DNA from: a virus
Taxonomy: Duplodnaviria > Heunggongvirae > Uroviricota > Caudoviricetes
Length of the DNA stretch: 64,000 nucleotides
IMG/VR virus record: IMGVR_UViG_2574180019_000006
Strand: one strand, 5' to 3'
This document shows, in pieces, positions 44 through 61,402 of this stretch (position 1 is its first letter; each line of letters begins with the position of its first letter). Below the pieces are notes generated by a model, which did no database searches, was not told where the DNA came from, and was given only the letters and a program-made list of their open reading frames with translations. Position numbers and translations under genes: made by a program.

Positions 44-1177
44 TTGGCGCTAAAGAATTTAGATGACAGCTCGGTTCATGCTATTGCCCGTGACGATATC
101 ATCTGCCCCATTTGCAAAGTTGGAGGTGGTTCGTTCGTTAGAGCCACTAGGAATGGTGGCTATCACAAGAAGGCGCATTTCAGATTTACCGGTGAAGATG
201 GTCAAGGCCATCATCCATCATGTGATTTCTATGGAGATAGATTAACATCTGAGGTGAAGCAGCACCTTGTCTCATTCACAAAAGATCGAACAAAGTATTC
301 GCAGGTAATACGAAAGCTGGTCTGTGCCGGCATACAGGAAGGGATATTTACTCAAGAAAAAATGTGGCAGATGAGGGAATGGTTCTTCAATAAGCGAAAG
401 GATTCCACATTTGAAATATGGTTAGAAAGCGAGCATTTAGACTGGCTTTATTATATTAGTGGGTTACGTGATGCATATCTAGCATGGACAACTCCTGATA
501 TTCTACCTTTCGCGCCCATTCAGGTTACTGTCCCTGGTTTTTCTTGGAGGCGTGCGATTGACAAAGAGGTGCTAAGAGTTCACATCAAGACTCTCCAGCA
601 ATTGCGTGAAATTTCAGTCTCACATAGTGACATTGCTGTAATCTTAGAACACATAAACAATAATCGTGACCGCACAATTCTCGATCCATCGCATTTGGAG
701 GACGAGATAAGTAAGACCTATAAGCTTACTAGTTTTGTGATGGGCAATTACATTGAGTTTCAGACAAAAACGGTTAGCGACAGAGCATACGGGGAAGCTA
801 AGTTTCTGGCATTTGCAGCACTTTTGTTGTTCGTGTCAGATTGGGACCTCAACATTGCTATTGGTAAGTTTTCTAAGATTGCCAGAGTGAAGGAGGTTGA
901 TGACATGCTGGCTGGTAATTTCATTGGTCTTAATCCTTACTTCCGATACGACCTGGCTAATGCAGTGAAGAGATTGCAGGATAACTGGCCGATTGAATAC
1001 CAAGAGTTGGAGCATTGGAATGTTGAGAAATCCATGCGTGACGCATATGAAAAGTGGCGTGCGACAGAGCCTGAATTCGCTCCACCCCTATTGCCAGACT
1101 TGTATATTGCCAAACATGAGAAAGAAGTCGCACAAGACGAGCAAGTCAGGCAGTGGATTAAGAACGGGGATGTTTGA
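44..1177 (+). CDS. hypothetical protein, Cys/His-rich N-terminus (CPICK...HHPSCDF); may be 5'-truncated by the window edge
   Basis: Long ORF; track start at 44 is a TTG and the frame is open back to position 2. No motif I can assign. Confidence 0.5.
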   Translation: MALKNLDDSSVHAIARDDIICPICKVGGGSFVRATRNGGYHKKAHFRFTGEDGQGHHPSCDFYGDRLTSEVKQHLVSFTKDRTKYSQVIRKLVCAGIQEGIFTQEKMWQMREWFFNKRKDSTFEIWLESEHLDWLYYISGLRDAYLAWTTPDILPFAPIQVTVPGFSWRRAIDKEVLRVHIKTLQQLREISVSHSDIAVILEHINNNRDRTILDPSHLEDEISKTYKLTSFVMGNYIEFQTKTVSDRAYGEAKFLAFAALLLFVSDWDLNIAIGKFSKIARVKEVDDMLAGNFIGLNPYFRYDLANAVKRLQDNWPIEYQELEHWNVEKSMRDAYEKWRATEPEFAPPLLPDLYIAKHEKEVAQDEQVRQWIKNGDV

Positions 1178-7812: not shown

Positions 7813-8337
7813 TTAAAATGGAAGGATTCGTTCAACCCAATCGAAGAAAACAAGTATTTTTCTGCCGTCTTCTAACTTAAGAGTGACCTGGCAAGCATCA
7901 ACGCCTCTTGACACCCCTTCTATTTCACGACCGTCTGTCATGTAGACCCTTATAGATTGGTCGTTTTGATAAGCCTTGCGACATATCGCAAAAAAGTCAC
8001 GGCGTGATGGCTGATTGTCAACATAGTCTGGATGTATTGTTAGCCTACCTTTGAACTCGCGAGCAATGTCATCGATTACACCTGATTCAATTGTGCTAAT
8101 GCGCTCAAGTGGGAGTCTTATACGATTTTCTTTATCATATGGAATCGGGCATAAATCTAGCTTATTGCGTGAAGGCATTGTCCCCTGAACGTACATGCAA
8201 AACACCTGACCGTCTTCAAGCGTGACTCTTACAGGAATGTTGTTCTTCCGCCAGAACATAAGTATGTTCTCAGCATGTTCGTAGTCTCGCGGCCAGACTT
8301 CAGCCGGTATGCCGTAGGTGATGTCCAATGTTCTCAT
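7813..8337 (-). CDS. hypothetical protein (174 aa)
   Basis: ORF whose start overlaps the upstream gene end (8334-8337). Confidence 0.55.
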   Translation of the reverse strand: MRTLDITYGIPAEVWPRDYEHAENILMFWRKNNIPVRVTLEDGQVFCMYVQGTMPSRNKLDLCPIPYDKENRIRLPLERISTIESGVIDDIAREFKGRLTIHPDYVDNQPSRRDFFAICRKAYQNDQSIRVYMTDGREIEGVSRGVDACQVTLKLEDGRKILVFFDWVERILPF

Positions 8338-8933
8338 TCTGATACTCTTAGAGGTGTTTTCAGCAATCCAAATTTAAATTCTTTATTACCAACGACCAAG
8401 AAGGGGACTTCAACATAGATTTTTTTATCGACGGATTTAGAGTTCGCTGTTTTCTTGATGTCGCGAACGATACGTTTTGTTGTGTTTTCATCAATAAACA
8501 ATACCTTCCCACTGGTATTCCCTTCAGTCTTAGCATAAGTGACAATAGGTTCTTCATTGCCAACTCTGATGTTCACTTGGCAACCCGTTGTAGCCATTTC
8601 ATCACAATAGAGTGTACCGTCTTGAATTTCTAAAACAATTCCAGATGGCTTCATGGCCTCGTTAGAGCTTACATTAGCGTTTTCTGGTACTGCGGTCCCG
8701 TTAATTTGCAACCGTAATCTTTCTGTTCCTGCATGAAGTATTGTTTCTTCTGCGTTATCTGAGAATCTATACCAGACTGGTTGAATCAGACCTCGTGATT
8801 TGTATTTTAGTACGTCTTCAGAAGTATACATGCTGTACGTTTTTTGCATGTCAGAGACGAAATCTGATAATGCGTTGGCGGAAAACGCCGGGAGGCATAT
8901 ACAAGCAAGGAGTAACGAAAGTTTCATTTTCAT
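8334..8933 (-). CDS. hypothetical secreted protein (signal peptide MKMKLSLLLACICLPAFSANA)
   Basis: N-terminal signal-peptide-like segment; track start 8948 is TTG, so I chose the in-frame ATG at 8933. Confidence 0.55.
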   Translation of the reverse strand: MKMKLSLLLACICLPAFSANALSDFVSDMQKTYSMYTSEDVLKYKSRGLIQPVWYRFSDNAEETILHAGTERLRLQINGTAVPENANVSSNEAMKPSGIVLEIQDGTLYCDEMATTGCQVNIRVGNEEPIVTYAKTEGNTSGKVLFIDENTTKRIVRDIKKTANSKSVDKKIYVEVPFLVVGNKEFKFGLLKTPLRVSE

Positions 8934-8948
8934 ATCATGATAATCCAA

Positions 8949-9437
8949 TTATTTAACATCACACTTTCTAAGTTTTTCTATTTGTTCTAATTTTTCATGA
9001 TCATCATTTAGATTTCCTTTGACTATCTCCGTTTCAAGTTTGCTGATTAGCATGTTAAGTGCGTTGTAGTTATTGCATTTTACTTTGTAGGCGTAGTATG
9101 ACCTTGTCCCTGGTTTTTGTACACCCATATCATTAAAGTTAGAGCTTAAAGTATAACCTTCAAGTTCAACCCCTTTTATTGTTGGAAGAATTATATTTAA
9201 TGGTTCTAATTTAAATGGGTAGATATAAATATGTGATATGAAGTACTCTTCTGAAGAGATTTTCTTCATGTCTTTTGTGATTGAAACTGAATATTTACGG
9301 TCCCGAGCGATATAAAATTTTGTACATTTGTACGGCTCTAAGTTGAATAGATAATATCTGTCTTTAAAAAGAACATCTTTTCCATGTGATATTTTATGTC
9401 GTAAAGAGTTAATTATTTTGTTTATAGAAATACTCAT
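8949..9437 (-). CDS. hypothetical protein (162 aa)
   Basis: ORF, AT-rich. Confidence 0.5.
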   Translation of the reverse strand: MSISINKIINSLRHKISHGKDVLFKDRYYLFNLEPYKCTKFYIARDRKYSVSITKDMKKISSEEYFISHIYIYPFKLEPLNIILPTIKGVELEGYTLSSNFNDMGVQKPGTRSYYAYKVKCNNYNALNMLISKLETEIVKGNLNDDHEKLEQIEKLRKCDVK

Positions 9438-47981: not shown

Positions 47982-48075
47982 AACTACAGTGTCAGCTTTA
48001 TGCCGCGCTAACACTATGTTCAGTCCTAACCACCCCAACCTTCACAAAAGGGCTACCGTAGCTTGGTGGCTTCTT

Positions 48076-50655
<2,580 letters not shown>

Positions 50656-50701
50656 TAGCGGAAACGGAATGGGGAAACTCATTCCGTTTTTGTTTATCGC
50701 C

Positions 50702-51046
50702 TTAGACGGCAAAAGTGCTGTCGCCCACCTGCGCTTGCGCATACCAGGCCATAAGCTCCGTGGTTCCTGGTTCTCCTTCCGCTGGAGCCCAGTGCGCATA
50801 GTCATCGGCAGCCACGGGTTGATAGCCACCGTGTTTTACTTCAAAAATTATGCCACCGGTATCCAGCGACAGCACGGCATGCCAGGTTCCTGCGGCCATC
50901 TCCAGCACCGTACAGGTTTCCCCCAATATCGCCCGATGGGTGACGGTACCCCGATCGTCAAAATTCAGCACCACGAAACGACCCCTTAATGGCAACAGTA
51001 GCTCGAAGGTGTGAGGGTGTCGGTGCGGGCGCACGTAGGTCCCAGG
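50702..51046 (-). CDS. orf477 fragment (cupin-like), 5'-truncated at the unit boundary
   Basis: Minus-strand frame stays open up to 51046, where the unit ends. Confidence 0.75.
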   Translation of the reverse strand, partial: PGTYVRPHRHPHTFELLLPLRGRFVVLNFDDRGTVTHRAILGETCTVLEMAAGTWHAVLSLDTGGIIFEVKHGGYQPVAADDYAHWAPAEGEPGTTELMAWYAQAQVGDSTFAV

Positions 51047-51286
51047 TCATATTCCTTCCGGCGTCCGGCATTTTACCGCCAGACAGCTCGGGATTCGTGA
51101 TATCACCGTTCTTGCAGAATACGGTTAGTATTTAGCCTTATCCAATGATCTCGCGTATACCGATAAATCGTCCATTATTGCATCTCTTTGCTACTGACTA
51201 ATGCGTTCTATTTTACACATAAGTTTTTAATCAATTTAACAGGCTCAAAGTGTAGAGCTTCTGGGCGTCTAAGACGACAAGTTATG

Positions 51287-59141: not shown

Positions 59142-59216
59142 GATGGTGTAGCTCAGCGGTAGAGCAGTTGGCTGTTAACCAACTGGTCGGTGGTTCGAAT
59201 CCACCCACCATCGCCA
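59142..59216 (+). tRNA. tRNA-Asn (anticodon GTT)
   Basis: Cloverleaf folded by hand: 7-bp acceptor GATGGTG/CACCATC, anticodon loop CTGTTAA, T loop TTCGAAT, encoded CCA. Confidence 0.85.
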
Positions 59217-59218
59217 AT

Positions 59219-59294
59219 GCCGGTTTAGCTCAGTTGGTAGAGCGCCTGCCTTGTAAGCAGGATGTCAGCGGTTCGATCCCGTTAACCGGCACCA
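59219..59294 (+). tRNA. tRNA-Thr (anticodon TGT)
   Basis: Acceptor GCCGGTT/AACCGGC, anticodon stem CCTGC/GCAGG with loop CTTGTAA, T loop TTCGATC, encoded CCA. Confidence 0.85.
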
Positions 59295-59614
59295 ACACAA
59301 CAGGTAAGAGCATTGGGCGAATCGGCGATACTGACCCACAAGGCCGTAAATCGATAGAGTCAGACCAGTGCTCTTACCGTTGTGAGGAAGTGCAGCTCTT
59401 TGAAGCAACCAGAAGATAAGCATCTGGCTTCACAACACAACGATAAGATCATTACGGTTAATCGTCGTTCATGTGCACAATGACTGGTCGAAAGGTAGTG
59501 ATCTTACCGTTGTGATGAATGCACAGGCTGATGTGCCGCAACTACAGTAGTGCGCGCTTTGCGGGGCTTGCTACAACCCTGTGTCGGAGTTCAGCACCGA
59601 CCATCACAATAGCT

Positions 59615-59701
59615 GGAGAGTAGGGAGCATGGTGCTCAAGCGGTCTTGAAAACCGTCCCATTGCGCAAGCGATGATGGTTCGATTCCATTACTCTCCGCC
59701 A
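59615..59701 (+). tRNA. tRNA-Ser (anticodon TGA), class II with long variable arm
   Basis: Acceptor GGAGAGT/ACTCTCC, anticodon arm CGGT-CTTGAAA-ACCG close to the E. coli tRNA-Ser arm I recall, T loop TTCGATT; D-arm is irregular. Confidence 0.6.
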
Positions 59702-59850: not shown

Positions 59851-59878
59851 AATCCAAAGGGGCTTCGGCCCCTTTTTT
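59851..59878. terminator. terminator hairpin flanked by A and T runs
   Basis: aaaggggc-ttcg-gcccctttttt at the 3' end of the minus-strand gene 59881-60771. Confidence 0.6.
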
Positions 59879-59880
59879 GG

Positions 59881-60771
59881 TTACTGATTATCTAGGTATG
59901 CTGTTAACTCATTTTTAATGATCAGTGAATATTCTAAAATCTCACCTAGTAAATACTCTGCTTTTTTAAAATGCCACCCCATAGAGCCTAATTTTTCTGA
60001 AGGTCTTTCTAACAACATTATAATATCGCTGTCTTGCTCTTTGGCAATGTATTGTCTTATTTCTCTCTCCCAATTATTTCTTGTCTTTCCACTTATTGAT
60101 GATTCATCCAAAACTTTGTTTATAAACTTTTCCGTGTCGGCGAACTTTCCTGCATTATGCACAATTGTATGTCTTAGCAACTCAATTAGAGTGATCTCGA
60201 AACGATAGTTTTTACCTATCTTGTTATTTATTTCTACGTCTCTGAAATTGGGTAATTTTCTTCTAAATACTTTCAGGAATGTTTTTAGTGATTTATTTTT
60301 TATCGCCTCGTAATAGGTTTCCATAGCTCCATTTTTATCAATCTGAACCTTTGGAAATTCACTAGGTGACCAAAAATGGTAATGTATGCTCACTGTATGG
60401 GCATATATTTTCTTAATATAATCTTCAAACAATTCAAAAGCTTCAGTTATAACCCATTGATATTGTTTGTTTTTTAACGCTTCGCATAATTTTATCTTCT
60501 CTGAGATATCTATTGTGCTATGCCCAATTCCAAATGTTGAACCTGTATATGGATTTGAGCATGTATGGTTTGTTAACGTTGTCCCGCATGTTATTGGGGG
60601 GGTATTATTAGCATCTAGAGTTTGTGCGTTTTCAAGTGTATGCTTAAATCGCTTTATGTTGTCTTTCGTTGTAACATTTATATGACCTAACAAGTCACAA
60701 CGCAAAATTATTTCGTTTCTTAATTCAGTGAATATGTTTTCAACAAAAGAACCTAGCGGGTTTTCAATCAT
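59881..60771 (-). CDS. hypothetical protein (296 aa), possibly HEPN-like
   Basis: AT-rich compared with flanking DNA; single Rx4H motif (LLRHTIVHNAG); no recombinase motifs. Confidence 0.5.
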   Translation of the reverse strand: MIENPLGSFVENIFTELRNEIILRCDLLGHINVTTKDNIKRFKHTLENAQTLDANNTPPITCGTTLTNHTCSNPYTGSTFGIGHSTIDISEKIKLCEALKNKQYQWVITEAFELFEDYIKKIYAHTVSIHYHFWSPSEFPKVQIDKNGAMETYYEAIKNKSLKTFLKVFRRKLPNFRDVEINNKIGKNYRFEITLIELLRHTIVHNAGKFADTEKFINKVLDESSISGKTRNNWEREIRQYIAKEQDSDIIMLLERPSEKLGSMGWHFKKAEYLLGEILEYSLIIKNELTAYLDNQ

Positions 60772-60946
60772 CTAAACCTCAACGAAAATCTTACCTATAA
60801 GACAGTCCTTAATGTAATCTATTTTCTCCACTACTTCAAATTACCTCACAATCTACCGATAGGTGACTACCTACTTACATACAAAGTTGATTTATAGTAT
60901 AGTCCCTCTGTTGCGTATTAGTATTTTTAAAGGCATTTGTTAAGTT

Positions 60947-61192
60947 ATGACGATCACTATCTACGGACGAGATAACTGCTCATACTGCAAACGTGCGGTC
61001 GAGCTGGCGAAGCAACTAAAGGGACATGGCTACGGTGATTATGAGTACATCGACATCACCACTGCCGGTATCGACAAGGAAAAACTAAGTGAAATTGTTG
61101 GTAAACCGGTAGAGACTATCCCCCAGGTGCTGATCGATGGCCAGCCGATTGGCGGATACACAGAACTGGCTGCATACGTCAGCACCCTCTGA
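60947..61192 (+). CDS. glutaredoxin
   Basis: CSYC active site in an 81-aa thioredoxin-fold-sized protein. Confidence 0.8.
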   Translation: MTITIYGRDNCSYCKRAVELAKQLKGHGYGDYEYIDITTAGIDKEKLSEIVGKPVETIPQVLIDGQPIGGYTELAAYVSTL

Positions 61193-61195
61193 TTT

Positions 61196-61225
61196 TAACG
61201 GCTCACAGGAGCCGTTTTTATTCCC
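61196..61225 (+). terminator. rho-independent terminator
   Basis: acggctc-acag-gagccgt then ttttatt. Confidence 0.55.
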
Positions 61226-61402
61226 ACCAAACTCACTCCCATTTCCCTTAAAATTCAAAAAACAACGTCAAAATGATTCCATACCTACTATGTATGGAAT
61301 CATTGCTGAAAATGAGTTACTTTTACTCTTGATCCTATAAGAATCTATGCCTAATATACTGTTTACTTATACAGTACATCGGCGTAACTCGGTGATTGTC
61401 AT

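Follow-up and report, generated by a model that had tools for sequence, protein, structure and literature searches.

A probable HEPN-type nuclease gene as exchangeable, possibly anti-phage cargo of an SSU5-type phage-plasmid of Escherichia coli

The window (the whole stretch of 64,000 nucleotides that was analysed) is an SSU5/pHCM2-type phage-plasmid of E. coli. The region of the gene described here matches the Escherichia phages Cyrano and CMS-2020a and is 99.5% identical to plasmid pECAZ155_2. The neighbourhood contains: a DNA ligase gene, a cluster of tRNA genes, grxA, an integrase gene and a repressor gene, and, between the terminator behind tRNA-Ser and grxA, a minus-strand ORF of 296 codons that starts with ATG (see the table). 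A first-pass annotation, made from the sequence alone, had described this ORF as an AT-rich gene that stands alone, and both descriptions hold: its GC content is 0.327 (32.7%) against a mean of 0.459 (45.9%; sd 0.043) for the window, and the cassette in which it lies holds neither a partner ORF nor tandem repeats. Only 1.7% of the segments of equal length are as AT-rich, all of them from two other islands, and the alleles of the gene are AT-rich throughout (29-33% GC). The candidate promoter remained below the threshold of the consensus promoter scan and was not reported there; the promoter-like pair is retained as TTGAAG / TAGAGT in the class of alleles with 59% identity.

Features of the locus (nucleotide positions in the window) and of the encoded protein (residues of the AF2 model)
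Feature	Position	Strand	Basis or remark
296-aa CDS, phrog_35492 member, probable solo HEPN-type nuclease	59881..60771	-	ORF and family match
Swappable cargo cassette, 1,067 bp: gene, 5' region, divergent grxA promoter region	59880..60946		Cyrano homology break
Bidirectional intrinsic terminator hairpin, AAAGGGGC-UUCG-GCCCCUUU	59856..59875		Backbone; shared with convergent tRNA cluster
tRNA-Asn(GUU), tRNA-Thr(UGU), tRNA-Ser(UGA)	59142-59701	+	Convergent with gene
R200-H201-T-I-V-H205 (RHTIVH), predicted catalytic Rx4H motif	60157..60174	-	C-terminal end of helix 189-206
Invariant E113 codon	60433..60435	-	Helix 89-129; candidate HEPN helix 2 acidic residue
Variable N-terminal module, residues 1-88: 50-residue helix and beta-hairpin	60507..60771	-	Low conservation, model secondary structure
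Shine-Dalgarno GAGG	60777..60780	-	5 nt upstream of ATG; kept in 59%-identity allele
Candidate sigma-70 promoter TTGAAG-17 nt-TACATT	60811..60839	-	Weak, 8/12
Helix	residues 5-55		AF2 model
Beta-hairpin	residues 65-87		AF2 model
Helix with E113	residues 89-129		AF2 model
Three short helices, candidate insert	residues 150-181		AF2 model
Helix ending in R200-H201-x3-H205	residues 189-206		AF2 model
Helices	residues 213-239		AF2 model
Small hairpin	residues ~242-251		AF2 model
Helix	residues 270-295		AF2 model

Homology to Cyrano ends at position 59879 and restarts at 60947, which is the start codon of grxA, and therefore the gene, together with the 175 bp on its 5' side, constitutes a replaceable cassette of 1,067 bp. 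Scans of the cassette for partner ORFs and tandem repeats found none, and neither Rfam nor a tandem-repeat scan revealed an RNA antitoxin or any further RNA in it. The terminator that had been assigned to the gene as its own proved to be a shared bidirectional terminator of the backbone: the hairpin is situated inside the flank that is kept in Cyrano and in pLR-48_2 (homology to 59879) despite their different cargo, it folds on both strands (-15.8 kcal/mol for the minus and -14.8 kcal/mol for the plus strand), and it was scored as a plus-strand terminator for the tRNA cluster. The position next to tRNA genes, which had been put forward as a common site of defence cargo, is real in this element and weak as an argument: the tRNA genes are phage-borne and do not constitute an integration site, and the adjacency is limited to the SSU5-like phage-plasmid lineage, being absent at some 48 other loci of the family. 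The tRNA cluster was also found in relatives that do not have the gene. The cluster itself is polymorphic among phage-plasmids: the window has the order Asn-Thr-(320 bp)-Ser, CMS-2020a and an IMG/VR relative (loci L002, 2645-3202, and L045, 9077-10078) have an additional Tyr gene, Asn-Tyr-Thr-(225 bp)-Ser, and Cyrano (locus L001, 3646-3893) has a spacer of 8 bp, Asn-Thr-(8 bp)-Ser; an Rfam scan of the 320-bp spacer (59295-59614) gave no match.

The slot is occupied differently in related elements. Cyrano and many E. coli phage-plasmids have a gene for a 116-aa N4 gp49/Sf6 gp66-like protein (PF13876, E 5.5e-29), which is the commonest alternative cargo, and in pLR-48_2 the slot contains, in the same orientation, the gene of an unrelated protein of 432 aa (NZ_AP027545.1; locus L063, 6295-7593). 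With 22.1 bits the latter protein just reached the gathering score (22 bits) of the Pfam family putAbiC ('putative phage abortive infection protein'), and it had no match in a PADLOC search; on this sequence similarity it is another candidate Abi gene product. Further phage-plasmids carry divergent alleles of the present gene in the cassette slot. With tblastn the gene was recovered on 58 plasmid records (29 from Escherichia, 27 from Klebsiella, and one each from Citrobacter and Pseudomonas), almost all of them non-mobilizable plasmids of 105-126 kb, and all alleles were annotated as 'hypothetical protein'. The alleles form discrete classes, with identities of about 99, 88, 59 and 39%, and differ by a dS of about 1.2 within flanks that differ by about 2%, and therefore represent old lineages that have been exchanged by recombination. 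The dN/dS between alleles is 0.23-0.45, at dS values up to about 1.2: the ORF is real and under purifying selection. The gene is missing from most related phage-plasmids and hence is not needed for their life cycle. A second variable slot was observed between grxA and the integrase gene (61193-61402); it is empty in the window (210 bp, with a terminator at 61197-61216) and holds in Cyrano the minus-strand gene CYRAN_43 (locus L001, 4893-5447), whose product of 184 aa had no match in Pfam and PADLOC searches.

The protein matches phrog_35492 in the PHROGs collection (E 4.7e-113; residues 6-295 on positions 6-301 of the 302 in the profile), a group that is annotated as of unknown function. A homology search with the single protein and a word index returned 6 close clusters only, and it was an exhaustive profile search that revealed the family: 345 representatives (clusters at 50% identity) at E ≤ 1e-3, nearly all of about 290 aa. 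They derive from Beta-, Gamma-, Epsilon- and Deltaproteobacteria, Bacteroidales, spirochaetes and others, and members occur on 14 viral contigs of IMG/VR. The family is thus widespread and has neither a name nor a characterised member. More than 50 family loci were searched for a conserved neighbouring gene and none was found; the neighbours are heterogeneous and often related to mobility or defence, and include: integrases, Bro-N, P2 GpR, Eco57I and restriction-modification genes, PDC-S15/FRG, AriA/PtuA-like ATPases and mad3. In Lonsdalea quercina two homologous loci (39% identity; locus L003, 5967-7319, and locus L004) can be called defence-island-like in context, because the gene is directly adjacent to that of an FRG-domain protein with a match to the PADLOC candidate system PDC-S15 (E 3e-93).

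Conservation was evaluated in an alignment of 98 members that share 21-35% identity with the query. Three columns alone are invariant, those of E113, R200 and H205 (98/98 each). H201 is found in 97 of the 98 members, the lone exception being an N, V204 and G208 are equally frequent (97/98 each), and N101, Q103, Y104, W106, Y112 and Y123 are each conserved in at least 90% of the sequences. These positions concentrate in two segments, the helix 89-129 with consensus NKQYQWLLAEAYExFED and the region of helix 189-206 with consensus LIExLRHxIVHxxG. The mean frequency of the top residue is 0.57-0.62 in these two helices versus 0.29-0.31 in residues 1-88; the variable parts of the protein are these N-terminal 88 residues, which form a candidate sensor or oligomerisation region, and the C-terminal third. 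The motif RHTIVH (residues 200-205), on which the first-pass annotation had based its suggestion of a HEPN-type nuclease, is present, but its occurrence in one sequence does not exceed chance: 34% of shuffled versions of the protein contain Rx4H and 71% contain Rx4-6H, and a second match of the query to Rx4-6H, R24-x5-H30, is unconserved in the family. It has meaning at the level of the family only, because there R200 and H205 are invariant. An AF2 model calculated on the 98-sequence alignment was confident (pLDDT 93.4, pTM 0.90) and supplied the secondary structure given in the table; a model calculated from 5 sequences (pLDDT 46) was set aside.

According to the published definition (PMC3710099), a HEPN domain is an up-down bundle of four helices. 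Helices 2 and 3 are separated by an insert, helix 3 ends in an Rx4-6H motif whose R is followed by a polar residue (N, D or H), and helix 2 in most cases bears a conserved acidic residue that is close to the motif in space. As far as sequence and the secondary structure predicted by the model go, the features of the family fit this definition point by point. The Rx4-6H motif is conserved without exception, the residue after R200 is polar in all members (H or, once, N), the motif lies in the model at the end of helix 189-206 and is followed there by the near-invariant G208, and the invariant E113, a candidate for the acidic residue of helix 2, is located in the long conserved helix that precedes the motif helix in the model. 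N is the commonest residue directly after the motif R in HEPN proteins.

Statistical comparison of the family with known ones gave a different picture. The query had no significant match in Pfam, PADLOC or NCBIfam, and none with a named Abi or HEPN family even at E ≤ 10. Pfam and PADLOC scans of the 98 members similarly yielded no significant or recurrent match to a named Abi or HEPN family; the families without match were: Abi_2/AbiD/F, AbiU2, AbiV, AbiJ, ApeA, RiboL-PSP, RnlA/LsoA, PrrC/RloC and Csm6/Csx1. What appeared were scattered weak matches of individual members, several of them in agreement with a HEPN assignment: three to DUF3644, which is a HEPN family (EC042_2821 HEPN), one to PF05168 and one to Csx1/Csm6. 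Member A0A923KM28 is named 'RiboL-PSP-HEPN domain-containing protein' in UniProt, a label that a search with the current Pfam did not return, even at E ≤ 10. Sequence searches of the PDB with shallow and deep profiles found nothing relevant; a match to CmlS (E 0.002) covered a helix only and was rejected as a chance similarity. Foldseek searches of the model against the PDB and the viral BFVD gave nothing at E ≤ 1e-3. Direct profile comparisons were made by hhalign with the DUF3644 prototype from E. coli 042 and a DUF3644 alignment of 30 sequences, both full-length and trimmed. In the comparison with EC042_2821/DUF3644 the motif RHxIVH was placed in register on RDQAVH over about 117-135 columns, with P values of about 0.04-0.1 that are not significant; the comparisons with DUF3644 profiles gave 0.6-1.4%, that with the full-length DUF3644 profile had a spurious top match, and that with RnlA gave 0.1%. 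Significant profile similarity to HEPN or Abi families, on which the first-pass annotation had in part made its reading depend, was therefore absent from Pfam, PADLOC and NCBIfam, which taken literally speaks against that reading, and the protein is not a member of any of the named HEPN or Abi families tested. Taking the conserved residues and these searches together, we consider the assignment of the family to the HEPN superfamily probable, with a chance appreciably better than even.

The closest functional precedent is HepS, which had been identified from evidence of the same type as that for the present family. HepS is a solo HEPN anticodon nuclease for abortive infection, encoded in an accessory slot of the Gifsy-1 prophage; the enzyme stays inactive until a phage tail-tip protein activates it, and then cuts the anticodon loops of tRNA-Thr, tRNA-Ile and tRNA-Ser (PMC13043305). 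The present gene resembles HepS in its general class, that of putative solo HEPN Abi genes on temperate elements, since it has no partner and is found on 58 phage-plasmid records and, through its family, on 14 viral contigs. It does not belong to the HepS family, whose members are shorter than 250 aa and have the motif near residue 100, whereas the protein described here has 296 aa and the motif at 200-205. DUF3644 (PF12358) is the sole HEPN family in Pfam that was weakly matched by more than one member (3/98). In that family an upstream F-R...E segment is also in register with ours, although the similarity is not significant, and both families occur in mobile islands; DUF3644 proteins, however, also contain fused wHTH and REase domains and are encoded in restriction-modification operons, whereas the present family is solo. 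In E. coli 042 the gene of the DUF3644/EC042_2821 HEPN-REase protein adjoins that of a DNA methyltransferase and lies downstream of an integrase gene at the tmRNA gene (the ssrA island, reference locus L062, 13188-16559).

In size the family is similar to the clade of Abi2 (AbiD/AbiF) and RiboL-PSP-HEPN proteins, which are HEPN proteins of about 300 aa. The lactococcal members act as single-gene abortive infection systems. The RiboL-PSP-HEPN family has been placed near AbiD/AbiF (PMC3710099). The present family differs from this clade in that there is no Pfam match to Abi_2 or HEPN_RiboL-PSP at E ≤ 10 and no L-PSP fusion. The HEPN toxins of the HEPN-T/MNT-associated type (HI0074, 1jog; AF0298, 2hsb; TTHA0636, 1wwp; TT1696, 1ufb) are proteins of about 120-135 aa that are accompanied by a nucleotidyltransferase antitoxin; the protein studied here is twice as large and has 7-13% identity to them. 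A HEPN-MNT toxin-antitoxin arrangement of type II or VII was not encountered either: neither the cassette nor the conserved neighbours include an MNT ORF, and a search for MNT-HEPN pairs among the fetched family loci found none. In concept the protein would be comparable to ApeA and the other single-protein HEPN defence systems in PADLOC, in which one HEPN protein suffices, although the PADLOC models for ApeA, AbiD/F/J/U/V, RloC, PrrC and RnlA had no significant match in the query or in the 98 members. Nothing relevant on HEPN genes of phage-plasmids was retrieved from the literature.

We propose that the product of the gene is a HEPN-superfamily nuclease that works without a partner, is encoded in the exchangeable cargo of phage-plasmids and aborts infection by competing phages, a reading to which we give a slightly better than even chance. 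This is in essence what the first-pass annotation had suggested; the invariant residues and the model agree with the HEPN part of it, albeit without a significant profile match. We infer the HEPN fold, the RNase activity, its trigger and target, and the role in defence; for the abortive-infection role in particular the support comes from the solitary state of the gene, the temperate nature of the element and a slot that elsewhere houses a putAbiC-like protein. By analogy with HepS, the protein would be a latent RNase, made in the plasmid (lysogenic) state and kept inactive, in which the variable N-terminal helix and hairpin and the C-terminal third would provide the sensor or oligomerisation surface. 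Upon infection by a competing phage two protomers might join their R200-H201-x3-H205 motifs, with E113, into a composite site, and this site would then act as a metal-independent RNase that cuts tRNA, mRNA or rRNA, such that the infection is aborted and the clone that carries the phage-plasmid is protected.

Other explanations have to be weighed against this proposal, and they concern both the nature of the protein and its role. The notion that the ORF is spurious or in decay, a product of AT-rich junk DNA, has a negligible probability. In its favour stand the chance scarcity of stop-free frames in AT-rich DNA and the annotation of every database entry as 'hypothetical protein'; against it are the dN/dS values, the 345 homologous clusters of the same length across many phyla, the confident AF2 model and the conserved Shine-Dalgarno sequence, and it is effectively refuted by selection, family size and model. 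A non-HEPN helical bundle, in which E113, R200, H201 and H205 would form another site, for instance one for a metal bound by His and Glu (HxxxH plus E) or one for a ligand, is a real though rather improbable alternative. It retains its place because all statistical tests of homology to known HEPN families, by sequence profile as well as by Foldseek, failed, and a metal might in principle be coordinated by H201-x3-H205 and the invariant Glu. Yet the combination of an invariant R, a polar next residue, an H in Rx4H spacing at a helix end that is followed by Gly, a preceding helix with an acidic residue, and an insert between the two helices agrees point by point with the HEPN definition; the lone substitute of H201 is an N, which is typical of HEPN domains and a poor metal ligand; and the best hhalign paths place the motif in register with the HEPN motif.

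If the protein is a HEPN-type RNase, it might still have no anti-phage role and be an addiction toxin or a tool of the lytic cycle for host shut-off or RNA processing, which we consider unlikely. The HEPN evidence is shared by this explanation and the defence reading, a low-copy plasmid-like element would gain from post-segregational killing, the gene adjoins tRNA genes, and the commonest alternative cargo of the slot, the N4 gp49/Sf6 gp66-like protein, belongs to an ordinary phage protein family and is not a known defence gene. An addiction role is opposed by the cassette, which has no antitoxin ORF and no RNA repeats, and by the lack of a conserved neighbour in more than 50 loci, and the gene is therefore not part of a classical toxin-antitoxin pair; a function in the phage cycle is opposed by its being missing from most of the related phage-plasmids. 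A role in tRNA processing was rejected: the gene is convergent with the tRNA cluster and not co-transcribed with it, and outside this lineage it is not linked to tRNAs. A related reading takes the protein as a new solo anticodon nuclease that is paired with the adjacent tRNAs of the phage-plasmid (Asn-GUU, Thr-UGU, Ser-UGA and, in relatives, Tyr). Sensing of a rival phage would then lead to the destruction of specific host tRNAs, and the element's own tRNAs would resist cleavage or refill the pool, so that the phage-plasmid could keep translating. The set of neighbouring tRNAs is suggestive because HepS cleaves tRNA-Thr, tRNA-Ile and tRNA-Ser, but such a coupling is unsupported, because some relatives have the tRNA cluster but not the gene, and elsewhere the gene is not accompanied by tRNAs, and we regard it as quite improbable.

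If the proposal of a HEPN nuclease that aborts infection is confirmed, a fairly widespread family of about 345 clusters, which come from several bacterial phyla and from viral contigs and have no entry in Pfam, NCBIfam or PADLOC, would join the single-protein HEPN immune nucleases, and the tRNA-Ser/grxA junction of SSU5-type phage-plasmids would be a hotspot of defence cargo. The class of defence-type nucleases concerned is very well populated, and solo HEPN Abi proteins on temperate elements are already established (AbiD/F, ApeA, HepS), so that the advance would be incremental and not conceptual. Cargo that excludes rival phages would also help to explain the persistence of phage-plasmids in E. 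coli and Klebsiella.

SSU5-type phage-plasmids are clinically relevant, and the present one, of a clinically common type, bears blaCTX-M-15. This gene is part of another AT-rich island of the window (48070-51130), which consists of an ISEcp1 transposase gene (48262-49524, plus strand), blaCTX-M-15 (about 49780-50655, plus strand) and the wbuC cupin gene (50702-51034, minus strand) and is 99.9-100% identical to thousands of plasmids; the phage-plasmid thus carries an ESBL gene. The third AT-rich island (8334-9437, minus strand; GC about 0.32) contains two adjacent ORFs of 204 and 162 aa, the former with a signal-peptide-like N-terminus, and these ORFs may represent further foreign cargo.
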